Source: Clostridia bacterium (GTDB lineage: Bacteria > Bacillota > Clostridia > UBA1381 > UMGS1253). Taken from it: a DNA stretch of 64,000 bases. The position numbers were made by a program, and so were the translations under genes. Below the pieces are notes generated by a model. That model did not search any database. It was given only the letters and a program-made list of their open reading frames with translations, and had not been told where the DNA came from. Numbering within the stretch: position 1 is the stretch's first letter; each line of letters starts with the position of its first letter. Location: the NCBI GenBank assembly GCA_045636325.1, contig JAZTXH010000016.1, positions 82,956 to 146,955 on the forward strand, given 5' to 3'. Shown here piece after piece: positions 1,729-58,282 of this stretch.

Positions 1729-3354
1729 TTATCTTGTTATTTTATAAATATTTGCCCAATTTCGTGCGTTTGAATACACTAAAAGTTCATAATCTGAAAA
1801 ATCAAGCTTTTTACACAACAGTTCTGCTGTGCGGTTAGTATTTAATGCGTCGTTTATATACACAATTATTTCATTTTCACCCTTAAGCTCAGGGTCGTTT
1901 CTCAGTTTGTATATCTCACCTGCTGCTACAAAAGCACATTTACTGTATTTTTTGTAATCAGCAAAATTGAAGAGAAAATGTGATTCATGTGTATTTATCA
2001 TGATACACTTTTTATTGCTGTTTTCTTCAAAGTTTTTACGGTTTTCTTCATTTAAGCGATAAAGATAATTTTTACCGCTTGGGCTCGCATTAAAATCATA
2101 CAGGTTTTGTTTCATATTAACACCAAGGCACAAAACCAAAATTACAAACACTATTATGCCCGTGTAACGAAATTCCCTTTTTGAAAAAATGCCTAAAATC
2201 AAAGCGATTGCCTTATACATAACAGAAATTGACAGCATACAGATAAGAGGAAAAATCGGAGCTATGTATCTGTCGGTCTGATATGGTGCAACCTTTGCGA
2301 CTAAGAAAAAGTAGAATACAATTGTCAGGCAACACATAAATATGTTTTTGTGTCGGCTGTTTAAATTTATATGTATAAATTTATTTTTATATGCCCTAAC
2401 GAGAAAGAATGCAATGCAGGTTACAAGTGCCATTACTACAATTCCAATTACTAGGCTGCCTATGCTTGAATTAAATATGTCAATATAGTTTACAGCATTT
2501 TTCAAAGATGATGAATTGGAAACATTGTCAAAGGCTTCAACACCTCTTCCTGATTTGAAAATATGTGAAATCGCGGCAGGCCACAGAGCAAGATATATAC
2601 CGCCGGTCAGTGCCATAAGTCCAGTGTATTTAAATATTTTTTTATATTCACCACGTATAAGCATAGAAACAACCGTAAAAAATGCCAAGGCAAAAAGGAA
2701 AATCAAAAAGTAATACTGGCTATATGCGCCAAGGAATACCACAAGAGCCATAAGAATTGCAGTACTTTTTGTAAAATTATAATTATTTTCGGCGAATTTA
2801 AAATGTAATAAAACAGCCGCAGTTGTAAAAAAAGTAAGCATAGCATACATTCTTATATATATAACCATATTTACACTGTTTACACTGAATGCAAAAAATA
2901 CAGTTGCCAAAAGTGCCATAAAACGCTTTTTAAAAATAAATGCAACTATAAGATACAAAAGAACACATGTGCCAAGCGTAAAAAGTATATTTGGAATAAT
3001 TCCTATGTAATAAGAACCGCTTCTGGGAAAAAACGATGAAATTGTATGCACGATTAAGTAATAAAGAGGCGGATGAACATCGTTTATCTGATTGTAATAA
3101 ACTTTGTCATATTCAAAACGGTGCTCGTTGTTCGTTGTAAGATAGCGGTCGATATCTTCTTTGGTATTCCATTTTATAGTGTTGGTAGAGTCTGTATAGG
3201 TTTTGAAAAAGAAGTCCTCTTCGTAATTTGAAAGACCGTAGGTATATGCCTCGTCACAATGAATTCCTTCTTTCTGACCCGCCCAGTAGAAAAAGTTTAT
3301 ACCTGCCAATAATAGTATAACGGAAAGGCAGATTGCGCAAAGCCTTTTACTCAT
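1729..3354 (-). CDS. polytopic GT-C-type (GT39/ArnT-like) membrane glycosyltransferase
   Basis: The 541-aa product has many TM segments and an N-terminal-loop DE motif (GIHCDEAYTYG). It overlaps the upstream GT2 gene by 8 nt. Confidence 0.65.
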   Translation of the reverse strand: MSKRLCAICLSVILLLAGINFFYWAGQKEGIHCDEAYTYGLSNYEEDFFFKTYTDSTNTIKWNTKEDIDRYLTTNNEHRFEYDKVYYNQINDVHPPLYYLIVHTISSFFPRSGSYYIGIIPNILFTLGTCVLLYLIVAFIFKKRFMALLATVFFAFSVNSVNMVIYIRMYAMLTFFTTAAVLLHFKFAENNYNFTKSTAILMALVVFLGAYSQYYFLIFLFALAFFTVVSMLIRGEYKKIFKYTGLMALTGGIYLALWPAAISHIFKSGRGVEAFDNVSNSSSLKNAVNYIDIFNSSIGSLVIGIVVMALVTCIAFFLVRAYKNKFIHINLNSRHKNIFMCCLTIVFYFFLVAKVAPYQTDRYIAPIFPLICMLSISVMYKAIALILGIFSKREFRYTGIIVFVILVLCLGVNMKQNLYDFNASPSGKNYLYRLNEENRKNFEENSNKKCIMINTHESHFLFNFADYKKYSKCAFVAAGEIYKLRNDPELKGENEIIVYINDALNTNRTAELLCKKLDFSDYELLVYSNARNWANIYKITR

Positions 3355-12742: not shown

Positions 12743-12926
12743 GATATTGCGAAACAAATTGAATTAACAAAGTAAAGGGAACTCTCATTATTTTACAAGG
12801 GGGTATTGCACCCTTTTACATTTACCATTTGAATTGGCAAAAAATGCAAATTCCACTTGGTAAATGTAGGAGATTTTCCTCTTTTGTTAAGATTTGTTTC
12901 GCAGCAATCGGGGTTTGCGTTTTTCG

Positions 12927-12956
12927 GTGCGTCGGCTTCGGTTGGCGCACTTTTTT
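12927..12956 (+). terminator. leader terminator/attenuator ~20 nt upstream of the SD
   Basis: gtgcgtcggc and gttggcgcac form a ~10-bp stem (3 G-U pairs) with a UUCG loop, followed by T6. It lies inside a ~230-nt leader. Confidence 0.5.
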
Positions 12957-12978
12957 ATATTTTAAGGAGGGCTTTTGT

Positions 12979-15765
12979 ATGAAGAAAGCGTTATCAATCT
13001 TTTTATTAATCACAATGTTATTTTCGGCAGCAACAATAACCTTTGCGGAAGTTTCAAATGAAGGGGCAAATACCTTGCCCTATGTAATAGAGCCGCAGTT
13101 TGAAAGTGCATTCGAGTTTAATAAATACGGCATTGCACAGGTACAGCTGCCGACAGTCGGTGATGAAGTGGGCAAAGTTGGCGTCATAAATCTTAAAGGT
13201 GAAAAAATCTTCGGATTTGACGGCACGAAGTTTGTAATCCGTAAAAACGGACTTATTATGGCACTTGGCGAAAATGATAAAGCGGCTTTTTTCTCAAGTG
13301 AAGGAAAGCAGCTTACCGATTATGTATACGAAACCTTTAAAAGAGTTCAGCAAAAAACTCCTCATGAGGTAACATATAACTATCTTACCAACCGTCACGA
13401 CGGTGATGGTGAAAGTGATTTGGTGCCCATTTGCAGAGACGGTAAATTCGGTTTTATTAACAGTAAGGGCGAAGAAGCCATTGCACCCACCTTTGACTAT
13501 GTTTTCGGATTTTTTGATGGTATATCCAAAATCGGTTATGACGGTGTTTTAAGTGAATACGGAACCTATACACAGTGTATGTATGGCTATGTAAACGAAA
13601 ATGGAGAAGTATTGCCAACGGGCAAGCTTTGGGAGGCTTCTGATTTTTCACACGGCTATGCCAGAATTGCTGACGGACAGTATAAAGTGATAGACAAAAA
13701 CGGCAGTGAAGTGCACTTTCCTACGGGTGATTTTGAATTTATAGAAACAAACGGTAATTTTATTTTGGCAGGTCACGACGGCGGTCATGTGGTGCTGGAT
13801 ATGAACGGCAATCTTATATCGGATTGGGCACCGAATATTCAGCTGTTTGGTAAAAGCTTTATTATATGGCAAAAACAAATTGCCGATATAAATGGAAATA
13901 TTATATATACTGCACCCGAAGGTGTTACAATTATTTTTGCAAGAGAGGGAAGCCGGGTAACACCAATATATAAAAGGGTTGTACAAAACAGAGTAGAGGT
14001 GCTTGTATCAGGTCTTGTAAATCAGGAGGGCAAGGTTGTAATTGAGCCGGGCTACAAAGGCTTAAGAGAGGTTGCAGAAGGCATTTTCTATTCACCTGAC
14101 AGTTATTGGCTTTTTGATGTAAACGGAAACCGTATTGCTCAGCTTGACGGGTATGAAGTAAGCCCGTTTACGGTGTATAACGGTCTGTCTTACAATTTGC
14201 TTCCTGTAAAAAGCTTTGAAAATCACAAATGGGGATATGTAAAGCTTCCCGAAACGGAAAATCCGTATATTTCAAAATACACACAGTCTGATATATACAA
14301 GATTTATAATATATATAATACTGACTATGGAACTGTTTTGTATATGCAACCTTTTGGCGTTCCACACGCTACGGGACCGTTTTTGATGCTTGTCCGTAAA
14401 AACGGAGAGGAGATAAATCTTTCTTCTGCGGTGTCAAGAGAAACAGTATGGGCACATCCTGAACATAACGATATAAAAATTTCCGAGGACGGCAGATATA
14501 TTACATTTAATGTTTCCTTTGATAAGCGTTCACAAGGCGGTGTGACAGATGGGGAAAGCTTTGTACTGCACGATGCAGGTACATATTATTATAAGGCTGA
14601 CCTTGAAACAGGATTAACCATTGAAACGCATTTTGAGCCCCTTGATACAATGGGAGAAGCTTCTATTTCTTCCTGGGCAAAGCCTGAGATTGAAAAAGCA
14701 ATAGCTTTGGGCTTTGTTCCGATTCCGCTAAGAGAGAATTACAAAAGAAATATTACAAGAGCCGAATTTGCAAAAATGGCAATGGATTTTCTTTCCTTTT
14801 CTTATGGTTATTCCAATGCAACAAGGCTGAAAACCTGGTCAGAGGTTGACTATGAAAAGCGTGGTTATGTTAACAATGACTTTCTGTGTGCATATTGCCA
14901 CGCAAAGCCTGACAGAAACGGCAAAGCCTTTATGTCGGGTAACAAAGAGTATGAGTATAACTCAAATCTTAAAATAACGATGGCAGAGCCCTTTGAAAGA
15001 ACTGAAGATTTTCTGTATTATGAATCGGTAATTGCCGCATATAACATAGGCATTGTAAACGGTGTAAGTCAAACAGAATTTAACCCGAACGGCGATATTA
15101 CCCGTCAGGAGGCAGCGGCAATGCTTATGCGTGTTTACAGAAATTACTCAGAGGCTGAAAATATATCAAATGACTATAGCTTTGCTGATAATGCTGTAAT
15201 TGCGGATTGGGCAAAGGAAGATGTTTACATGATAAATCAGCTTGGTGTTATGCAGGGTGTGGGTAATGATATGTTTGCACCCCTTGATAACTACACCGTT
15301 GAGCAGGCTATTGCTACTTTTTTAAGACTTTATGAAAATGCCCCCGTAAGCCGGAAAAACAAAAATATTGTCCCCCTTCTCGAAATGAAATTTGAGAAAG
15401 AAAAAGTAACAGAGGGAAATTCTGGCGGCAGAGGATGGGTAACATTAGAAGAAAAAGAGTTTGTGTTTGATGACTATACCATATTGCAGGGAGTATGGAA
15501 TATGCGACACTACGGCGGAAGCGATGTTATTTATATTTTCCACAAAAGCGGCGGTGTATCATCATTTTATACCGACGGAAACCTGACATCTGAGTTGGAA
15601 ATAGATGCTGATAGAAATATAATTCGCTATAATGCTAAAGTTTCAGATACTTTCCGCCTATACAATCAGCTTTGCGGAAGTGAAAAGGTATATTCGGCAG
15701 GAGAATATATGTTTGAATGTGATATTGAAACAGGAAATATTCTCCGATTGGAAAGAATAGCATAG
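12979..15765 (+). CDS. secreted surface protein: WG/KWG-like beta-repeats, three SLH-like modules and a C-terminal domain
   Basis: The signal peptide is MKKALSIFLLITMLFSAATITFA. Repeats include DGKFGFINSKGEEAI and YGYVNENGEVL. SLH-like segments include ITRAEFAKMAM, ITRQEAAAMLMRVY and WAKEDVY...GVMQG. The start is set at the ATG after AAGGAGG. Confidence 0.75.
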   Translation: MKKALSIFLLITMLFSAATITFAEVSNEGANTLPYVIEPQFESAFEFNKYGIAQVQLPTVGDEVGKVGVINLKGEKIFGFDGTKFVIRKNGLIMALGENDKAAFFSSEGKQLTDYVYETFKRVQQKTPHEVTYNYLTNRHDGDGESDLVPICRDGKFGFINSKGEEAIAPTFDYVFGFFDGISKIGYDGVLSEYGTYTQCMYGYVNENGEVLPTGKLWEASDFSHGYARIADGQYKVIDKNGSEVHFPTGDFEFIETNGNFILAGHDGGHVVLDMNGNLISDWAPNIQLFGKSFIIWQKQIADINGNIIYTAPEGVTIIFAREGSRVTPIYKRVVQNRVEVLVSGLVNQEGKVVIEPGYKGLREVAEGIFYSPDSYWLFDVNGNRIAQLDGYEVSPFTVYNGLSYNLLPVKSFENHKWGYVKLPETENPYISKYTQSDIYKIYNIYNTDYGTVLYMQPFGVPHATGPFLMLVRKNGEEINLSSAVSRETVWAHPEHNDIKISEDGRYITFNVSFDKRSQGGVTDGESFVLHDAGTYYYKADLETGLTIETHFEPLDTMGEASISSWAKPEIEKAIALGFVPIPLRENYKRNITRAEFAKMAMDFLSFSYGYSNATRLKTWSEVDYEKRGYVNNDFLCAYCHAKPDRNGKAFMSGNKEYEYNSNLKITMAEPFERTEDFLYYESVIAAYNIGIVNGVSQTEFNPNGDITRQEAAAMLMRVYRNYSEAENISNDYSFADNAVIADWAKEDVYMINQLGVMQGVGNDMFAPLDNYTVEQAIATFLRLYENAPVSRKNKNIVPLLEMKFEKEKVTEGNSGGRGWVTLEEKEFVFDDYTILQGVWNMRHYGGSDVIYIFHKSGGVSSFYTDGNLTSELEIDADRNIIRYNAKVSDTFRLYNQLCGSEKVYSAGEYMFECDIETGNILRLERIA

Positions 15766-15789
15766 TAGTAAATAAGGAGGCGAAAATGC

Positions 15790-18700
15790 ATGAAAAAATT
15801 ATGTTGTATATTGATTAGTATAGTTGTTTTGACTTCATTAGTTCCAGTATCCGTTTTTGCAAACGAGGAAATGAAAGATGGTTTTTTTACTTATACGGTA
15901 AACGAGAATTCCATAACAATAACTGATTGTGATGAGGAAGCTTCAGGTGATGTGCGGATACCTTATGAAATAAATGGTATACCTGTGGAGCATATTGGAG
16001 ATCATGCCTTTTCTTCTTGTAGTAAAATTACAAGGCTGCTGCTTCCAAATATCAAAACAATCGGATGTGGTGCTTTTGCATATTGTGAAGCATTGGAAAA
16101 AATTACGTTTTCCGATAGTCTTGAAATAATTAAAGGATGTCATGTTATGCACATCACTACAGGTCAAGATAATTATGAATATTTTATGGGACTTCCTTCG
16201 GCAACCTTCTATTACTGCAAAAGTCTTAAGAATGTATATTTTCAAGGTGACAATACAAAAATAGAAGGTACTCTTTTTATAGATTGCCCCAATCTCAGTT
16301 ATGTAAAACTGCCTGATAATCTGAGCGAACCACTGTCGGAATATGAATTTTTAAGCAAGGAAACGGTTGGACAGCAAAAATATGTTTTTACCGATTATCC
16401 ATCCAAACTGAAAATCGGAAAAACAGAAAATGAAATTATAAAGAGCTTTTGCTTAGAAAAAGGATTTAAGATGGCGGAAATCTATTACAGTGACGGACAG
16501 GAATGTCATGGAGAATTTCAATGGTACAACGGCTTTGCATATGTGGTTTTGGACGAGTCGGCAAAAACTGCAATACTGGTTGACTATGACAGAGAAATTA
16601 TCATAGGTGAAGAGCTTGTCATTCCCACTGAAATAAACGACTATAAAATAACCGGATTTGCAGATAGGCTATTCAATAACGGTACATTTAAAAAGTGTGA
16701 TTTGCGGAATTTCCCTGTTTTGTCGCACTCCATGTTTACAAATTCTTTGTTGGAAGAGATTATATTATCACCGCAAACAAAGGAAATTCCCCCTCAATGC
16801 TTTCCGGGAACAAAAATAAAAACTGTTGAATTACCGGAGGGGCTGGAAGTTATAGGAGAGGATGCTTTTCGAGAAAGTACAATCGAGGAGGTTGCCATTC
16901 CGTCAACAGTGAAAGAAATAGGAGAAAACGCTTTTACGTTTTGTAATAATCTCAAAAAAATTGAAATTAAAGAAGGTGTGCTTTCGAGTCTGCAAGCAAT
17001 GAGTGACGGTTATGCTTCAAGCTTTAGTGCACCCAACATTGAAACTTTAATAATTCCTCCAAGCATAACACTCATTGATGACTATGAGTTTAAGGAATTG
17101 AAAGTTGCCAAAGCCGGATATTCTGTGGGTGATTATCCGCAAAATCTTACGGTGTACGGTACACCCGGCTCATATGCTGAAAGTTTCGCAAGAATTCATG
17201 GGTTTAATTTTATAGAAAATTTAAGTTGGGAAAGCAAAACAAAAAACCTTTACGCTATAGCACGCCTTGAAAAAGAATCATTTACAGTTTTTGTTAATGA
17301 AATAATAGATACAGAGTATGGTACGGTCCTGTACTATGATATTGGCGGTATGCCGCACGGACCTTACACACGATTTTTGCTTGTTGATTATGATGGAAAT
17401 GAATACCAGTTTGAAGGCGATCCCATACCGGCTGATACTGTATATGGCAGAGACCCGGAGTTTGACAATTTGAAAATTTCGGATGATGGGAGATATCTGA
17501 CCTTTTCTGTATCGTTTGCCGATAGACTGGTAGCAACGCTCGGTGATACACCACAGATGTTTCACGATGCAGGCACATACTATTTTAAATGTGACCTTAA
17601 AGAACATACACAGGTAGAGACACGCTTTGAACCATTGGATACAATGGGTGAGGACGAAATTTCTGCATGGGCAAAGCCGGAGGTTGAAAAAGCCATTGAG
17701 ATTGGCTTTGTGCCTATTTCTTTGAGAGATAACTATAAAAAGAATATAACAAGAGCCGAATTTGCAAAAATGGCTATGTACTTTTTAAGTGTGCAGTATG
17801 GATATCAGCCGGAGCATATAATACGCACTTATTATAATCTGGATAAAGAATTTCCTTTATATGATTTCATTTCTGCATATTGCACATCAAAGAAAGACCG
17901 TAACGGAAACAACTTCATCAATAATACTACAGGTGAAGAATGGAAATATGAAGATAAGAGAGCAATGGATACTGTGTCCGTGTTCAGCAAGACAAATTTC
18001 GGTGATTTAAACGGTGAGAATGTTTTTGATATGCAGTTAATTGGTGTTGCATATAATTTTGGCATTGTAAACGGTGTAAGTGAAACGGCATTTAACCCTG
18101 ATGGCGATATTACAAGGCAGGAAGCAGCGGCAATGTTAATGCGTGTCTATAAAAATTATGCAGAATATAAAAACACGGACACCGAATATCTTTTTTCTGA
18201 CGATGACACTATTGCCGATTGGGCAAAAGAAGATGTGTATAATGTAAATGCTCTCGGCGTAATGCAGGGAGTAGGAAATGATATTTTTGCACCGTTGGAC
18301 GGATATACAGTAGAACAAGCCATAGCGACATTTTTACGCTTATATGAGTCGGCGCCCGTAAGCAGAAAGAACAAAAATATTGAACCATTGCTTGACTTTG
18401 AATACGAAAAAGAGAAATTCTATGTGAATGTTCCGGGAACATCATCATTCTTTCCCGAGAAGGAATATGAGTTCGATGCATACACGGTAGTCAGCGGAGT
18501 CTGTCAGAGCTTGCACGGAAAACCCGATTATAAGCTTTATGTATTCTACAAATATGGCGGTAAGCGTGATTTGACATCTTTTATGCCGGTAGCGCAGGAT
18601 AATACAAGCTTGATTGAAGATGTAAAAATCAACCCTGAAGAAAATATAATTACTTTTGTTACCGAAATTTCCGATACTTTTTGCCTGTATAATAAGTTAA

Positions 18701-18795
18701 ACGGAACGGAAAAGGTGTATGATATGGGAAAATACATCTTTGAAATCAATTTGGAAACGGGAAATGTTATAAGGATTGAGCGGTTATTTGATTAA
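15790..18795 (+). CDS. secreted surface protein: BspA-type leucine-rich repeats and the same SLH-containing C-terminal half
   Basis: It has a signal peptide. LRR units have the pattern IP..V..IG..AF..C..L. The C-terminal ~490 aa is paralogous to the previous gene. Confidence 0.75.
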   Translation: MKKLCCILISIVVLTSLVPVSVFANEEMKDGFFTYTVNENSITITDCDEEASGDVRIPYEINGIPVEHIGDHAFSSCSKITRLLLPNIKTIGCGAFAYCEALEKITFSDSLEIIKGCHVMHITTGQDNYEYFMGLPSATFYYCKSLKNVYFQGDNTKIEGTLFIDCPNLSYVKLPDNLSEPLSEYEFLSKETVGQQKYVFTDYPSKLKIGKTENEIIKSFCLEKGFKMAEIYYSDGQECHGEFQWYNGFAYVVLDESAKTAILVDYDREIIIGEELVIPTEINDYKITGFADRLFNNGTFKKCDLRNFPVLSHSMFTNSLLEEIILSPQTKEIPPQCFPGTKIKTVELPEGLEVIGEDAFRESTIEEVAIPSTVKEIGENAFTFCNNLKKIEIKEGVLSSLQAMSDGYASSFSAPNIETLIIPPSITLIDDYEFKELKVAKAGYSVGDYPQNLTVYGTPGSYAESFARIHGFNFIENLSWESKTKNLYAIARLEKESFTVFVNEIIDTEYGTVLYYDIGGMPHGPYTRFLLVDYDGNEYQFEGDPIPADTVYGRDPEFDNLKISDDGRYLTFSVSFADRLVATLGDTPQMFHDAGTYYFKCDLKEHTQVETRFEPLDTMGEDEISAWAKPEVEKAIEIGFVPISLRDNYKKNITRAEFAKMAMYFLSVQYGYQPEHIIRTYYNLDKEFPLYDFISAYCTSKKDRNGNNFINNTTGEEWKYEDKRAMDTVSVFSKTNFGDLNGENVFDMQLIGVAYNFGIVNGVSETAFNPDGDITRQEAAAMLMRVYKNYAEYKNTDTEYLFSDDDTIADWAKEDVYNVNALGVMQGVGNDIFAPLDGYTVEQAIATFLRLYESAPVSRKNKNIEPLLDFEYEKEKFYVNVPGTSSFFPEKEYEFDAYTVVSGVCQSLHGKPDYKLYVFYKYGGKRDLTSFMPVAQDNTSLIEDVKINPEENIITFVTEISDTFCLYNKLNGTEKVYDMGKYIFEINLETGNVIRIERLFD

Positions 18796-41797: not shown

Positions 41798-42592
41798 TTA
41801 TTTTATATATGGTCTTACCGGCTGACCGTTTGCTGAAAGGTATTCTTTTAATTCACGAACGGAATAGTTTCTGTCCATCTTCGGTGAATAAAGCATAGAG
41901 CTTATAATACCTGCAGATGCACCGGTTTTTGAAAATACATCCCAAAGATGCTCAGGCTTTCCTGCACCGCCTGATGCAATAACGGGGATGTTAACCGCAT
42001 CAGAAATCATTTTTGTAATCTCTAAATCATAACCCTGATGAGTACCGTCGTTATCAATTGAATTTACGCAGATTTCACCTGCACCAAGAGCCTCACCGCA
42101 TTTTGCCCAGGACAGAGCATCAATACCTGTAAATACTCTTGCACCATCAATTGCAATTTCGTATCCGCTGGGGATTTCAAGGGTTTTTTCAACTTTTTTT
42201 ACCTGCATACTAAGCACGATACACTGACTTCCGAATGCCTTTGCGCCCTCTTTTATTATCCATGGCTGACGCACTGCCATAGAGTCAATGCTGATTTTTT
42301 CGGCGCCGGCCTTTAAAACCTCATACATATCGTCAAGATTTCTGATGCCACCACCAACAGTAAAGGGAACAAATACGTTTTCTGCTACCATTTTAACTGT
42401 GTCTATATCAATTTTTCTTCTTTGTGCACTTGCAAGAATATCAAAGAAAATAATTTCGTCTATCTGGTCTGCATATATTTTTTTTGCAACAACCTCTGCT
42501 TTGTCTATGTCAATATTATTCTGAAATTTATGTGCCTTTGTAACCATTTTATCACGTATATCAAAGCACGCAATAAGTCTTTTTGTAAGCAT
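41798..42592 (-). CDS. HisF-family (beta/alpha)8-barrel protein, divergent paralog
   Basis: It contains KRLIACFDI, TVGGGIR and VIASGGAGKPEH. The position I align with cyclase Asp130 (AIDAK) reads SMQVK. No other his genes are in the window. Confidence 0.8.
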   Translation of the reverse strand: MLTKRLIACFDIRDKMVTKAHKFQNNIDIDKAEVVAKKIYADQIDEIIFFDILASAQRRKIDIDTVKMVAENVFVPFTVGGGIRNLDDMYEVLKAGAEKISIDSMAVRQPWIIKEGAKAFGSQCIVLSMQVKKVEKTLEIPSGYEIAIDGARVFTGIDALSWAKCGEALGAGEICVNSIDNDGTHQGYDLEITKMISDAVNIPVIASGGAGKPEHLWDVFSKTGASAGIISSMLYSPKMDRNYSVRELKEYLSANGQPVRPYIK

Positions 42593-42612: not shown

Positions 42613-43212
42613 TTATAGCTTTGCGAAGTTTTCCAAAAGCTTAAGGCCAATTTCACCGCTTTTTTCAATGTGGAACTGAGAAGCGTAAACATTGTCTTTT
42701 GCTATCATGGATGTAAAGTCTTCCCCGTAATTGGTAACAGCTAGAGCCACGTCTTCTTTCGGGCGGATGTGATAAGAGTTTACAAAATAAAAATATTCAC
42801 TTTTGCCAAGACCTTCGTTAATGGGAAGTTTTTTTAAAAATTCTGCACTGTTCCAGCCCATCTGTGGAACTCTTACCTTGTTTTCATCAAAGCGGACAAC
42901 GTCGCCTTTTATCCAGCCTAAACAACAGGCATCGTCTTCTTCGCTATGCTCAAATAAAACCTGAAGTCCAACGCATATTCCAAGGAAGGGCTTTTTTTCT
43001 TTCAGGGCATGATTTTCAAGAGTTTCTATTATATCAAGCTCTTTTAATGAATCCATTGTTGCACCCGCGCTTCCTACGCCGGGAAGAATTATGTGTGAAC
43101 AATTTTTTAAAGTCTCTTTGTCTGCGGTCAGCACACATTCAAGATTTTTTGCTTTGCAGGCATTTTCCACACTGGGGCCGTTACCTGCCTTGTAATCAAT
43201 TATACCTATCAT
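42613..43212 (-). CDS. HisH-family class I glutamine amidotransferase
   Basis: It has the nucleophile elbow LGICVGLQ and the His/Glu pair in QFHIEKS. Confidence 0.85.
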   Translation of the reverse strand: MIGIIDYKAGNGPSVENACKAKNLECVLTADKETLKNCSHIILPGVGSAGATMDSLKELDIIETLENHALKEKKPFLGICVGLQVLFEHSEEDDACCLGWIKGDVVRFDENKVRVPQMGWNSAEFLKKLPINEGLGKSEYFYFVNSYHIRPKEDVALAVTNYGEDFTSMIAKDNVYASQFHIEKSGEIGLKLLENFAKL

Positions 43213-43225
43213 TTAAAATCTCCTC

Positions 43226-43957
43226 TTACTTTTTGTTTCTGTTTATTATAAACTGTTTTGCCTGAGCTTCAAAATCGTCACAAAGCTCTTTTAAATCTTC
43301 TTTAAAGTTAGGATATTTATTTAAAATTGCTTTTTTAATCAAAAAATCTGCAAGCTCTGGATTTTTTGGCAGTATCGGACCGCACATATAAGTTCCGATA
43401 ACGTTTTTATAAAAAATTCCTTCATATTCACCTTTATCCCCGCGGCCAAACAAAACCTTGCCCAAAGGCGAAAAATTATCTGATTTTGTTTTGTTTTTAT
43501 GATTTTCAAAGCCTGCAAGAATAACAGCTTTGCCGTCAAGCTCTGATTCAAGCGCAAAATCGCCCATAAAACTACCGTCTGTTTCAAAACTTTCGGCATC
43601 TAAAATTCCAAGTCCTGTATAAGTTTTGCCGCCCATCTCAAAGGTTTTTAAAAGCATCTGATAACCTGTATGAGTGGCAAGCAAAACACCGCCGTTTTCT
43701 GCAAATTCCTTTATTTTATCAGCGTGGGGAAGAAGAATGTCCAAAGCTTTTAAGACTTCTTTTTCGCCGCCACCGCCGATTAAAACAATATCTGTATTTT
43801 TAACTAAAAACTCGCCTGATGATACAAAATCACAGCAGACCGCATTAATGCAGCGTTTTTGGCATCTCATTTTTAAAACGCTTACATTTCCCGTATCACC
43901 TGAAAGATTCAAAAGGTCAGGACAAAGATTTAAAATTTTAATTGAATAATCAGCCAT
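43226..43957 (-). CDS. gatD: GatD-like (CobQ-type GATase) subunit of lipid II isoglutaminyl synthase, atypical active site
   Basis: It contains LNLSGDTGN, FENH and YKNVIGTYMCGPILPKNPE. Its ATG overlaps the murT stop (TAATG). The expected Cys elbow reads ATHTGYQ, and the expected HGP reads CGP. Confidence 0.75.
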   Translation of the reverse strand: MADYSIKILNLCPDLLNLSGDTGNVSVLKMRCQKRCINAVCCDFVSSGEFLVKNTDIVLIGGGGEKEVLKALDILLPHADKIKEFAENGGVLLATHTGYQMLLKTFEMGGKTYTGLGILDAESFETDGSFMGDFALESELDGKAVILAGFENHKNKTKSDNFSPLGKVLFGRGDKGEYEGIFYKNVIGTYMCGPILPKNPELADFLIKKAILNKYPNFKEDLKELCDDFEAQAKQFIINRNKK

Positions 43958-45324
43958 TACTCTTTATCCCCCTTTTCTGAAAGTCCTTTAAGCACAAGAT
44001 ACGCAGGATGCATGGTTGTATAGTTTACAAGAGCATAACAAACCTTTTCGCCTCCTAAAAGCATAAGAGAAATTGCTTCTTCAATGTTTTCTGCGATTTT
44101 CATAACTGACTCATCTGCTCCAGCATATTTTAACCTTAAATACATATCGTGTTTTCTTATGCCACCAAAGGTGTATGATGAAGTTTTGCTCTCACAAAGG
44201 GTTTCAAAATCAACATCATAAATCCACGAAATATCAACCCCGTCTGAGGGATTATCATTCAGTAGAATACAAACATCTTTTGCTCTCGGATCATTTATAA
44301 CAGCCGTGACAGATTGATTAAAGCCGGTTGGATTTTTTGAAAGCACAATATAAATTTCCTTGTCACCTATATTGAATTTGCTCATTCGGCCCGGTTCAGG
44401 CTTTTGATTTGAAAGAACATTTTTTATGGTATCTTCATTTATTCCAATAGAATTTAAAACACTGTATGCCCCTAAAAGATTGTATACATTATAAAGTCCG
44501 GTTACGTGGCTTGTAAGGCGGAAGGATTTTTTGCTCAGTTTATTTATATCAAATCTAAGAGTGCCGTCTTCAATTTTTATATTTGTCGCACTGTAGACGG
44601 AATCGGGATTTTTATATCCGCATTTTTGGCATTTGTATTTACCAAGTTGGCCGTAATTATAATATTCATAGTCCATTAATGTAGAGCATTTCGGGCACTC
44701 TGACCCATAGTGACGCTCACGAAGAGTAATTAAATCCGTCTTTTGGCCTATGCAGTAGTATATATTTTCTTTTTTAGTTTCAAAAACTGATGTAACAGGG
44801 TCGTCAGCATTTAAAACAAGTTGAGCATGGGGGGCAAGAAGAAACGCTTTTTTCAAAAGCTTTGATGTGCCCTCTATTTCGCCGTAACGGTCAAGCTGGT
44901 CACGGAAAAGATTAGTAACGGTAATCACATCAGGGGTAAGATGGCGGAAAAGCAGGTGCAGATTTGCCTCGTCAACCTCAAGGGTTGCAAAGTCTGCATC
45001 GAGTTTGCCGAAAAATTTAGCTTTTTTTGCAAAGCTTGCGGCAATACCGCCTAACATATTTGCGCCCACATTATTGCAAACGATTTTGTTCCCTGCTTTT
45101 AGAAGAACGGAATTTATAAGGTTGTTTGTTGTTGTTTTTCCGTTTGTTCCGCACACTATAATTATTTTTTCTTTTATCTGTTTTGCCATAAGGTCTATAA
45201 AATCCGGGCATATTTTAAGGGCAATGTTTCCTGGTGCCGTTGACCCGCGCGATTTTAACACACTGCAGATAAAAAATACTGCCTTTGCCGCCAAAGTGGC
45301 AATAAATAATTTAAGTTTTTTCAA
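43957..45324 (-). CDS. murT: MurT, Mur-ligase-family subunit of lipid II isoglutaminyl synthase
   Basis: It contains GTNGKTTT, NLFRDQLDRYGE and the Cys4 ribbon CPKC...CQKC. Its C-terminal DUF1727-like region contains DGVDISWIYDVDFE. Confidence 0.85.
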   Translation of the reverse strand: MKKLKLFIATLAAKAVFFICSVLKSRGSTAPGNIALKICPDFIDLMAKQIKEKIIIVCGTNGKTTTNNLINSVLLKAGNKIVCNNVGANMLGGIAASFAKKAKFFGKLDADFATLEVDEANLHLLFRHLTPDVITVTNLFRDQLDRYGEIEGTSKLLKKAFLLAPHAQLVLNADDPVTSVFETKKENIYYCIGQKTDLITLRERHYGSECPKCSTLMDYEYYNYGQLGKYKCQKCGYKNPDSVYSATNIKIEDGTLRFDINKLSKKSFRLTSHVTGLYNVYNLLGAYSVLNSIGINEDTIKNVLSNQKPEPGRMSKFNIGDKEIYIVLSKNPTGFNQSVTAVINDPRAKDVCILLNDNPSDGVDISWIYDVDFETLCESKTSSYTFGGIRKHDMYLRLKYAGADESVMKIAENIEEAISLMLLGGEKVCYALVNYTTMHPAYLVLKGLSEKGDKE

Positions 45325-45534
45325 ATATCATCATTTCTTTCCAAAAAAATATCAACCTATATTATAACACAGAATAAACCAAATTACAACTGATTTTCAC
45401 AATGTGAAACGTAATATTTTCATTTTTTTTAAAAAATTGCGGATTTTTTATGTTTTTTTTTCAGAACACTTGAATTTTTTTAAAAAATATGGTATCACTA
45501 TATAGTAGAAACTTCAAAAAAGGGTGATGCAGAA

Positions 45535-54790: not shown

Positions 54791-55927
54791 ATGATAAGAG
54801 AGCAGACAATAGAATATAAGATAGTAAGTTTAATAGGATTAGCAGGAGAAGTACAGACAGAAGAGTTATATAAATTGAAATATGGAAAAGAGTATATAAG
54901 GAAAACGATAAGTAAGTTAATAACAAATAAATATATTAAAGTATATAAATTCAATAATAAAAAATATTTAAGATTAACGGTATCGTGTAAAAGATATTTA
55001 AAAGAATACCATTCAGATAGATTTGAAAATATGTTTGATGGAGCGAGCAGGACCAATAAGGTGAGAAATGATGAACACAGAGGGATAAGGAATCACAGAC
55101 TCGCTGAAATATTAATTCTCTTAGACCTTGCAGACATAAAAATTTTTGCGGATGAAAAAAGCCTGATGGAAAAAACTCTTGGATTTGAAAGAAGAAACGG
55201 CACAGACTTAACAGACTATTGTGCAGAGAAAAACACAGCAGAGTTTTATACGGCAGATGAATTAAAAGCAGCAGGATTATTTAAGAATGCAAGAACGTCA
55301 AGAGCAATGGGAGTTATCTTCTCTTATCCAGAGGTTTATATAATATATAATTTTGGCGATGAGGTTTTGAAAATGGAGAATAAAACTGAGGAATCATTTT
55401 TCTCCAAAGCAAAATTGGCATTTTATTTTGAACTGCAGGAAAAACACTATTATGAATTTCCAAGAATTATTTATGTAGGAAACAGTATGGATCTTGCAAA
55501 TAAGATTATGAACGCAAGAAAAGGAGCAGTAAAAAAGATATTTAACTCATGGACGGACTATCCGCATGTTCTCTTCATTGATGCATCAAATCACGCTCCT
55601 GAGCAACTTAAATATATTATAAACGCTACTCGTAGAGATGAAATAAAGGATGTTATATATAATAATTTTGGCGGAGATAACGAAGCTTTATATGTTGCCA
55701 ATACAATGGATCACAAAACTGAAATTATGGATTGCACCAATTTCAATCTCGTAGCTATTAATCTTTATAAAAGAGAAAGAGAAAGTTATGATGAAAAAAC
55801 TAAAAAAATAATAGTTGTCAGCATTGATTATCAATTTCCTTACATGAAAAAATATTTCAGAAAAAAAAGAGATGTTGAACACTATCAGATTATTTCAGAA
55901 GATATATATGGAACGGGGGACACCTGA
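54791..55927 (+). CDS. hypothetical 378-aa protein, copy A (N-terminal winged-helix-like region)
   Basis: It is a paralog of 57146..58282, with the same length and a shared QTIEYK..VS.IGLAGE.QTEE.YKLKYGKEYIRKTISKLIT N-terminus. Confidence 0.6.
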   Translation: MIREQTIEYKIVSLIGLAGEVQTEELYKLKYGKEYIRKTISKLITNKYIKVYKFNNKKYLRLTVSCKRYLKEYHSDRFENMFDGASRTNKVRNDEHRGIRNHRLAEILILLDLADIKIFADEKSLMEKTLGFERRNGTDLTDYCAEKNTAEFYTADELKAAGLFKNARTSRAMGVIFSYPEVYIIYNFGDEVLKMENKTEESFFSKAKLAFYFELQEKHYYEFPRIIYVGNSMDLANKIMNARKGAVKKIFNSWTDYPHVLFIDASNHAPEQLKYIINATRRDEIKDVIYNNFGGDNEALYVANTMDHKTEIMDCTNFNLVAINLYKRERESYDEKTKKIIVVSIDYQFPYMKKYFRKKRDVEHYQIISEDIYGTGDT

Positions 55928-56973: not shown

Positions 56974-57145
56974 AATAGTTAGAAAATGCCGCAAAAACCG
57001 TATCACAAAACGGCGTTTTTAATCGAAAATTTTGTGACATGGCGAAAAGCCCATAAAACCGGGATTTTCGAGGCTTTTTCTCTGATAAAAAAAGACCGTA
57101 AATAAGAAGATTGGATAAAAATAAAGCAAAGGAGTGAAAACAGAT

Positions 57146-58282
57146 ATGATTAAAAAGCAGACAATAGAATATAAACTGGTAAGCATAATAGGATTAGCAG
57201 GAGAGATACAGACGGAAGAAATATATAAATTAAAATACGGAAAAGAGTATATAAGAAAAACAATAAGCAAGTTAATAACAAAGAAATGTATTAAAGTATA
57301 TAAGTTTGATAATAAGAAATATTTAAGATTAACAGTAGCTTGTAAAAAATACTTATTGGAAAATTATCCTGAAAGATTTGAGTCTATATTAAAAGGTGCA
57401 GCCAGAGCTAACAAAATACGAAACGAGGAACACAGACGAACAAGGTATCACAGACTTGGCGAGCTTTTAATTCTTTTAGACCTTGCAGACATAAAAATAT
57501 TCGCTGATGAAAAAACTCTTTGGAAAAAGACTCATGGGTTTCAAGAAGCAGACGGAACAGACTTCACAGACTATTCACCGGATAAAAAGACTGCTGAGTT
57601 TTATACAGCAACGGAATTAAAAAGCTTTGGATTTTTTGGAAATGCAAGAACATCAAGAGCGATGGGAATCATATACTCTCATCCGGATGTTTTTGTAATA
57701 TACTACTTTGTCAATGAATTTCCCAAATTGGAATACAAAACTGAAAGTAGTTTTTGTCACAGTGCGGGTTCCGGCATTCATTCTAATTTGAGGCACGATT
57801 ATCATGCTCGTGCAAAAATAATTTTCGTTGGAGACAGTATGAAAATATTTAACGATATTTTACGTGATAAAAGAAAGTCCACAGAGAAAATTCTTAGGAT
57901 GAATGATGATAGTGACCCTGTTATGTTCCTTGATAAATCTCATCTTGGTTCAAGACAACTTATGTATTTTATCAACGAAAGAGCCAGGAATGAAATGAAA
58001 ATGTTTTCTTGTGATTATTTTGGAGCTGAAACTACAGGATGGCATATAGGTTACATTCCCAATACGGGCAAGATTGTCAGAGATTGCACTATATGCAACC
58101 CGAGGGTTATTTCATATATTAAATACATCAGCAAAGGAGAAGCTGTTGAGTATAAAGCGGTAAATGTAATGTGTTTTGATTTTCAATATGAATGCATAAA
58201 GAAATATATTGGCGATTCTGATAACGTTACATATTACACATACGATTCAGAAAAGGTACTAGGAACGGAGGAAACGAGATGA
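57146..58282 (+). CDS. hypothetical 378-aa protein, copy B
   Basis: It is a paralog of 54791..55927. The start is set at the ATG after AAGGAG, by homology. Confidence 0.6.
   Translation: MIKKQTIEYKLVSIIGLAGEIQTEEIYKLKYGKEYIRKTISKLITKKCIKVYKFDNKKYLRLTVACKKYLLENYPERFESILKGAARANKIRNEEHRRTRYHRLGELLILLDLADIKIFADEKTLWKKTHGFQEADGTDFTDYSPDKKTAEFYTATELKSFGFFGNARTSRAMGIIYSHPDVFVIYYFVNEFPKLEYKTESSFCHSAGSGIHSNLRHDYHARAKIIFVGDSMKIFNDILRDKRKSTEKILRMNDDSDPVMFLDKSHLGSRQLMYFINERARNEMKMFSCDYFGAETTGWHIGYIPNTGKIVRDCTICNPRVISYIKYISKGEAVEYKAVNVMCFDFQYECIKKYIGDSDNVTYYTYDSEKVLGTEETR

Follow-up and report, generated by a model that had tools for sequence, protein, structure and literature searches.

A GatD homologue with a decayed glutaminase site, probably retained as the partner of an intact MurT, in a Clostridia bacterium

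The lipid II isoglutaminyl synthase MurT/GatD is regarded both as an essential enzyme that depends on glutamine and as a target for drugs. The catalytic triad, a Cys and a His of GatD together with an Asp of MurT, has been called highly conserved among homologues (PMC6113224). What, then, is a GatD good for in which neither the Cys nor the His stands where it is expected? The question is raised by a 64,000-nucleotide (nt) stretch of DNA from a Clostridia bacterium (contig JAZTXH010000016.1, positions 82,956 to 146,955; hereafter, the window), which encodes a GatD homologue of 243 amino acids (aa), hereafter gatD* (43226–43957, minus strand). A preliminary description of the window had noted by eye that His and Cys have traded places in this protein, and had offered two explanations: an inactive glutaminase retained as a scaffold, or a swapped dyad that still works. 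The analysis presented here favors the first. We consider gatD* likely to be a pseudo-glutaminase that decayed by drift, the partner of an intact MurT that would amidate with ammonia from elsewhere.

The membership of gatD* in the GatD family is evident from profile, structure, and gene order. It scores 70.2 bits on the PF07685 (GATase_3) profile, for which the cut-off is 27, and HMMER matches residues 6–241 to the Staphylococcus aureus GatD structures 5n9m and 6gs2 (E about 4e-36). An AlphaFold2 model (predicted local distance difference test score 96.1, predicted template modeling score 0.93) places helices at residues 200–214 and 228–242, and its top structural match in Foldseek is S. aureus GatD (6gs2_A, template modeling score 0.89); judging by the model, gatD* should fold as GatD does. 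The stop codon of murT and the start codon of gatD* share base 43957, the first base of gatD*, and gatD directly follows murT at almost every one of the ~90 related loci whose upstream sequence is long enough to tell. The loop that contacts MurT (GPILPKNPEL) is present, as is the C-terminal helix alpha7. The protein misses the cut-offs of two NCBIfam equivalogs, NF052463 (148.6 bits vs 450) and NF045636 (120 bits vs 400), but these misses weigh little, since the name of NF052463 points to Staphylococcus and canonical clostridial GatDs went unscored against both models. Its residues fail the defining catalytic features of the GatD glutaminase, and it is best described as a putative pseudo-glutaminase variant of GatD.

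The exchange of His and Cys is real. HMMER pairs His96 of gatD* with Cys94 of S. aureus GatD ('vllatHtgyq' against 'pglticggyq') and Cys192 with His189 ('gtymCgpilpkn' against 'gtylhgpilpkn'), and both MAFFT and hmmalign place the two residues in the same columns among 269 homologues. A shift in the by-eye alignment is thereby ruled out. The codons also read as first described, with CAT for His96 (43670–43672, minus strand) at the nucleophile-elbow position, where relatives have TGC or TGT, and TGC for Cys192 (43382–43384, minus strand). Sequencing or assembly error at both codons can be ruled out as well, because an identical gatD* protein is encoded on a Logan contig of independent assembly (L001) and an ENA homologue from another sample that is 78% identical (P0002) carries the same His/Cys pair. 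The arrangement is rare. The canonical Cys/His pair (written C/H, nucleophile site first) is found in 107 of the 120 best word-search matches and in 125 of 148 cluster representatives at 50% identity; across both sets, H/C occurs only in gatD* itself (P0001) and in P0002.

The two exchanged residues are accompanied by further losses at the glutaminase site. In addition to C94→H and H189→C, gatD* replaces the glutamine-capturing Arg128 of S. aureus with Ser (Ser129; codon 43571–43573, minus strand, placed from alignments), Gly95 of the oxyanion hole with Thr (Thr97), and Tyr17 with Ser; the other oxyanion-hole glycine, Gly60, is kept. In S. aureus GatD, each of the substitutions C94A, H189A, and R128A abolishes glutaminase activity (PMC5871853), and glutamine-dependent amidation is lost in both C94S and C94G (PMC6113224; PMC3266927). 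We extended the comparison to the family by setting 79 canonical against 9 degenerate GatDs and considering positions at least 90% conserved in the canonical set. Those lost in the degenerate GatDs are Y17, R64, L73, G95, Y104, L115, R128, G151, R152, N169, and H189, which take in known pocket residues. Those kept are D19, G59–61, the loop G190-P191-x-L193-P194-x-N196-P197, and residues of the C-terminal helix. The G190–P197 loop and helix alpha7 are the elements of GatD that contact MurT (PMC6113224).

Could the swapped dyad nonetheless work, with Cys192 as nucleophile and His96 as general base, so that gatD* would still be a glutaminase? The side chains of Cys94 and His189 lie 3.7 Å apart in S. 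aureus (PMC6113224), so the exchange would leave Cys and His next to each other, and the G59–G61 loop, D19, and the MurT Asp that completes the triad (Asp364 in the window) are all kept. The elbow, the strained backbone of residue 94, and the oxyanion hole formed by the backbone of G60 and G95 are, however, built around position 94 and not 189 (PMC5871853; PMC6113224); C94 is listed as a Ramachandran outlier (PMC6113224). The replacement of G95, R128, and Y17 counts against a working dyad as well. The retention of both residues in P0002 might be taken in its favor, but two residues conserved at 78% overall identity are uninformative.

The codons of relatives suggest how the pair arose. Within the clade to which the window belongs (described below), the residues at the Cys and His sites are C/Y in L002/L003, C/G in L005, S/S in L122, C/N in L007, and C/C in L123/L124. 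Since the closest relatives mostly keep Cys94 and have Tyr, Gly, or Ser at the 189 site, the lineage most likely lacked a His there before His96 arose. The codons at the 189 site are CAC or CAT in canonical relatives, TAC in L002 (Tyr), TGC in the window (Cys), and GGC in L005 (Gly), and they can be arranged in a chain of single-nucleotide steps, CAC→TAC→TGC→GGC. At the Cys site, CAT of the window differs from TGC of relatives at all three codon positions, and the path from TGC to His96 requires two or more nonsynonymous changes, each of them an amino-acid replacement. Read on the MurT tree, the pattern points to one loss or two. A functional swapped dyad, as the preliminary description had also allowed, therefore appears highly improbable to us, given close relatives with Tyr, Gly, or Ser at the His site, mostly Cys at the nucleophile site, and codons that look like single-step drift. 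The His/Cys 'swap' is best read as a probable accident of drift, a sign of decay and not of a re-wired dyad.

The rate at which gatD* changes points to a relaxed constraint, which also counts against a working dyad. Over 2850 pairs of canonical loci, GatD identity is described by 0.73 x MurT identity + 0.22, with a residual standard deviation (SD) of 0.054. The window falls below this line by 0.17 in comparison with L002 and by 0.24 in comparison with L005, and L087–L125, the clade's sole canonical pair, lies +0.02 from it; gatD* evolves ~3–4 SD faster than MurT identity predicts. Between the window and L002 the nonsynonymous divergence (dN) is 0.37 for GatD, 0.18 for MurT, 0.08 for HisH, and 0.03 for HisF. 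The ratio of nonsynonymous to synonymous divergence (dN/dS) for GatD in this pair is ~0.2–0.35, a weak estimate with dS saturated, and points to continued purifying selection on gatD*, the constraint apparently relaxed but not gone. The suggestion of an inactive glutaminase kept as a scaffold gains support from this combination: C94, H189, and R128 as well as Gly95 and Tyr17 are replaced, the elements that contact MurT are conserved, and GatD is fast relative to MurT.

The partner subunit shows no such decay. The gene murT (43957–45324, minus strand) encodes an apparently intact subunit of Mur-ligase type, with a GTNGKT motif, a Cys4 zinc ribbon, and the motif DNPSDGVDISW containing Asp364. 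It matches PF08245 (Mur_ligase_M) and PF08353 (MurT_C, 114.9 bits), as well as the MurT chains of PDB entries 6fqb and 6gs2 (E about 1e-71). Asp364, in GVDISW, aligns with Asp349 of S. aureus MurT, the residue that completes the catalytic triad (PMC6113224), and together with neighboring Asp and Trp residues it is invariant in all nine MurTs that partner a degenerate GatD. The dN/dS of MurT is about 0.05–0.15. A difference at Gly191 of MurT was set aside as probably a local alignment shift.

One MurT residue does vary with the state of GatD. The Arg that follows the zinc ribbon (CGxKR; R230 in S. aureus) reaches 95% conservation among MurTs whose GatD is canonical and is replaced in seven of the nine with a degenerate GatD; the window has Asn239 (codon 44608–44610, minus strand). 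This pattern suggests that the Arg may serve the glutaminase site across the subunit interface.

The same replacement, together with the way in which the pocket residues of GatD change as a group, could instead be taken to mean that the MurT/gatD* pair no longer amidates lipid II, either as a decaying pair or with some other ligase function in which gatD* would bind a different ligand. Against this stand the catalytic and structural motifs of MurT, all of which are intact, and its low dN/dS; the interface of gatD* is likewise conserved, the gene appears to be under purifying selection, and the operon is kept across a deep clade. We therefore regard the loss of lipid II amidation as very unlikely.

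We infer, rather, that gatD* has lost glutaminase activity, that amidation continues, and that its nitrogen reaches MurT by another route. Using ATP, the intact MurT would activate the alpha-carboxylate of D-Glu in lipid II and amidate it, gatD* would be retained as a structural partner that MurT needs, and the ammonia would come from a source other than GatD. A laboratory equivalent of this arrangement has been described in S. aureus, where MurT/GatD_C94G amidates lipid II with NH3 at pH 8.5, its glutamine-dependent activity being lost, while MurT alone and GatD alone are inactive with any donor (Münch et al. 2012; PMC3266927, Table 2). That the mutant complex works with NH3 while MurT alone does not would explain why a dead GatD is kept. 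The S. aureus variant was engineered and carries a single substitution; in the window, by contrast, several residues have been lost in nature, and this loss has outlasted speciation.

Dead GatDs are not confined to the clade of the window. The catalytic Cys, the His, or both are missing from 23 of the 148 nearest cluster representatives at 50% identity (P0121–P0268; about 16%), and the non-canonical Cys/His states include C/Y, C/C, C/N, S/H, G/H, A/H, D/H, and S/S. Three loci outside the clade, L004 (C/D; GCA_052842365.1), L127 (A/H), and L128 (S/H), have a dead GatD in an ordinary murT-gatD pair, and no neighboring glutaminase gene was found among their called neighbors. Because dead GatDs exist without a neighboring glutaminase, a general ammonia-dependent mode is favored. 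The most likely donor is free ammonia or ammonium in these gut organisms, at roughly even odds by our estimate.

Another candidate donor is encoded immediately downstream. The gene hisH (42613–43212, minus strand) starts 13 nt after gatD* and encodes a class-I glutaminase with an intact Cys/His-x-Glu triad; after a gap of 20 nt it is followed by a gene for a HisF-type (beta-alpha)8 barrel (41798–42592, minus strand; PF00977, 204 bits), so that murT, gatD*, hisH, and hisF form a tight block on one strand. A promoter-like site, TTGTAA-17-TATAAT with an extended TG (45361–45389, minus strand), lies upstream of murT, a consensus match only, and a consensus scan of the window found no terminator-like site between the four genes. 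The block occurs in nine distinct loci (the window, L002/3, L005, L007, L087, L120, L122, L123/4, and L125), with the same gene order in all nine, even where MurT identity falls to 53%, and with variable flanks on both sides. Of these, L007 is from JAZQIM01 and L124 from GCA_045626925.1. In the eight loci where both gatD and hisH are called completely, the gap between the two genes is -4 to about 60 nt, with overlaps of 4 nt in L002 and L122. In a neighbor-joining tree of MurT, the four-gene clade, from Clostridia, is monophyletic.

The linkage was found in this one clade and is associated with the decay of GatD. Every looked-up HisF homologue at least 83% identical to that of the window sits in a four-gene locus, and a scan of metagenome contigs with HisF returned, besides the short fragment L120, matches of at most 80% identity that are unlinked to MurT. 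A scan of genome contigs gave, among the matches listed, a best identity of 45%. Of 80 GTDB species-representative loci among the matches listed, L007 alone carries hisHF at a distance of up to 6 kb, and no other has a non-canonical GatD. Degenerate GatDs are found in six of the nine hisHF-linked loci but in none of 79 GTDB loci that lack the linkage (Fisher p = 1.6e-7, with no correction for phylogeny). Three of the linked loci (L087, L125, L120) have a fully canonical GatD, however, and the linkage must accordingly be older than the decay.

Beside the four-gene block of L123/L124, and beside a diaminopimelate dehydrogenase gene, lies a gene (2028–3008, minus strand) for a 326-aa protein of the GMP-synthase C-terminal/ATP-PPase type that has no glutaminase domain. 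It represents a further amidotransferase of this clade that apparently has no glutaminase of its own.

What kind of HisH-HisF pair is this? HisH passes the TIGR01855 cut-off (216.3 bits vs 105.4), its triad is also seen in alignments with HisH structures from the PDB, and the motifs GICVGLQ and QFH(I/L)EKS are present in the HisH of all nine four-gene loci (QFHIEKS in the window). HisF, at 277.4 bits, falls below the TIGR00735 cut-off of 294.55. Aligned with Thermotoga maritima HisF, it keeps the ammonia gate R5/E46/K99/E167, D11, K19, and the phosphate-site residues. In HisF, Asp11 acts as acid and Asp130 as base (PMC11350729); Gln takes the place of the general base D130 both in the window and in each of the 120 closest homologues. 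These 121 sequences make up what we call the Q130 or 'Gln130' subfamily, in which Gln130, Glu98, and Asp103 are found in 121 of 121 and Ser104 in all but one; in comparison with textbook HisF it shows Asp98→Glu, Asn103→Asp, Thr104→Ser, and a 6-residue insertion after beta5. An intact ammonia gate, D11, and K19 are common to these sequences too, and the copies at L086–L099, L109, and L116 are of this type. Identity is 73–94% among the 120 best matches, and the subfamily remains 73–80% identical across distant Clostridia.

Q130 HisF is found in true his operons, at L092 (hisD-hisC-hisA-hisH-hisF), L096, and L099, and also elsewhere, beside genes for type III glutamine synthetase (GS-III), GatCAB, and PurBC (L088–L090) and in a Vallitalea cluster (L086). 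Other his genes were found neither in the 64-kb window nor in the sequences flanking the block at its nine loci. Since the subfamily sits in true his operons, the pair is most simply the organism's imidazole glycerol phosphate (ImGP) synthase and not an 'extra' glutaminase; the hisH-hisF of the window probably encodes an ordinary ImGP synthase by this comparison. The presence of the subfamily in genuine his operons also implies a putative variant of ImGP synthase that can do without the textbook general base. Gln130 had been considered as a sign of a pure ammonia channel that had lost cyclase activity; we discounted it as evidence once the same residue turned up in copies within true his operons. 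Likewise rejected was a recent transfer or special operon constraint as the reading of the 95% identity of HisF beside 76% for MurT: dS is saturated (1.4–1.7), and the whole Q130 subfamily is slow.

The neighborhoods of hisH-hisF(Q130) at L087 (136–4901), L125 (1–3781), and in the flanks of L088/L089 are rich in genes that use nitrogen or glutamine, namely those for CTP synthase, GMP synthase, adenylosuccinate lyase, GS-III with an ANTAR regulator, and GatCAB. Such neighborhoods may reflect co-regulation by nitrogen status.

Could HisH-HisF nevertheless have been recruited as the ammonia donor, with HisH splitting glutamine and the ammonia traveling via the HisF barrel to MurT, through or beside a dead-GatD adaptor? 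The tight same-strand block, its order retained while the flanks vary, the short and sometimes overlapping gatD-hisH junctions, and the concentration of degenerate GatDs in linked loci all speak for recruitment, as do the HisH triad and HisF ammonia gate, intact everywhere. HisF identity between degenerate lineages of two subclades (0.89–0.91) exceeds that between two canonical ones (0.85), which adds a weak hint. There is precedent, too, in the WbuX/WbuY/WbuZ and AglZ/HisF2 acetamidino systems, in which a HisH-like glutaminase and a HisF-like barrel stand beside an ATP-dependent enzyme that needs ammonia. Yet the window HisF falls below the cut-offs for that group (TIGR03572, 224 bits vs 299.7; NF038364, 186.4 bits vs 310), and, in a further difference from WbuZ and AglZ-HisF2, its subfamily is represented in true his operons and in unrelated contexts. 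At the 13 active-site and gate positions compared, MurT-linked HisF is the same as other subfamily members of 73–80% identity. Known ImGP synthases, moreover, couple glutamine hydrolysis tightly to their substrate N'-[(5'-phosphoribulosyl)formimino]-5-aminoimidazole-4-carboxamide ribonucleotide (PRFAR), a further point against recruitment. The persistence of the block also has a neutral alternative, in which hisHF depends on the murT promoter and is thus unable to move away.

On balance we think recruitment rather unlikely, though deserving of mention, and HisH-HisF ranks below free ammonia as a donor because the linkage predates the decay, the HisF type occurs in true his operons, and dead GatDs are found without hisHF. 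As the donor in these organisms, the co-transcribed pair remains a minority candidate. A four-protein amidotransferase in which HisH-HisF supplies ammonia for lipid II amidation and dead GatD serves as an adaptor between MurT and HisF is a similarly doubtful prospect; if true, it would represent a natural replacement of a glutaminase inside an existing complex and an ImGP synthase moonlighting in cell-wall synthesis. The view of the downstream HisH as an 'extra' glutaminase, put forward in the preliminary description, is thus weakly supported: the linkage exists and goes together with GatD decay, but it also occurs with intact GatD, its HisF type also occurs in true his operons, and dead GatDs are found where no glutaminase gene is near.

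Several points weigh against a decayed gatD* that is fed by ammonia from elsewhere. The decay is concentrated in the hisHF-linked clade, a bias that free ammonia alone does not explain. The S. aureus MurT/GatD used NH3 at pH 8.5 only and not at pH 7.5 (PMC3266927). A second, intact gatD may possibly lie elsewhere in the genome, of which 64 kb were read. Finally, the joint presence of His96 and Cys192 in P0002 is compatible with a constraint on the pair.

How does the locus compare with systems already known? The MurT/GatD isoglutaminyl synthases of S. aureus, Streptococcus pneumoniae, and Streptococcus pyogenes (PDB 6gs2, 6fqb, 9sq9) share with it the murT-gatD cassette with its stop/start overlap, the folds, the MurT motifs including the triad Asp, and the GPxLPKNP loop and C-terminal helix of GatD. 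They differ from the window in the GatD Cys, His, Arg, one oxyanion-hole Gly, and lid Tyr, all replaced here, and in that hisH and hisF follow in the operon of the window. A class-I glutaminase domain that has lost its catalytic Cys is also known from the ammonia-dependent carbamoyl phosphate synthetase I of ureotelic vertebrates, where it is kept as a structural or allosteric part of an enzyme that uses free ammonia. Unlike gatD*, that domain is fused, belongs to another synthetase family, and is part of a eukaryotic mitochondrial enzyme. The searchable literature yielded no account of naturally dead GatDs, and none of a murT-gatD-hisH-hisF operon.

The occurrence of natural dead GatDs beside an intact MurT suggests that glutamine-independent amidation of lipid II probably operates in vivo. 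The natural series of dead GatDs provides a means of testing what role GatD has beyond ammonia supply, by what route ammonia reaches MurT, and whether a neighboring glutaminase can substitute.

Minor observations concern other genes. At L086 (Vallitalea pronyensis CP058649, 8937–10978), the gene next after hisH-hisF(Q130) encodes a 443-aa protein without an NCBIfam or precomputed Pfam match and is followed by genes for a divergent 237-aa HisA-like barrel (TIGR00007, 67 bits, far below the cut-off) and a DegT-type aminotransferase, forming an uncharacterized cluster. In the window, two paralogous open reading frames (ORFs) of ~380 aa (54791–55927 and 57134–58282, both plus strand) have nearly identical N-terminal halves with the shared stretch …EQTIEYK(I/L)VS(L/I)IGLAGE(V/I)QTEE(L/I)YKLKYGKEYIRKTISKLIT…; small ORFs separate the two, a 595-aa minus-strand ORF lies nearby, and the region has the appearance of a duplicated or mobile element. 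Two adjacent ORFs of ~1000 aa (12829–18795, plus strand) have N-termini resembling signal peptides and probably encode cell-surface proteins.

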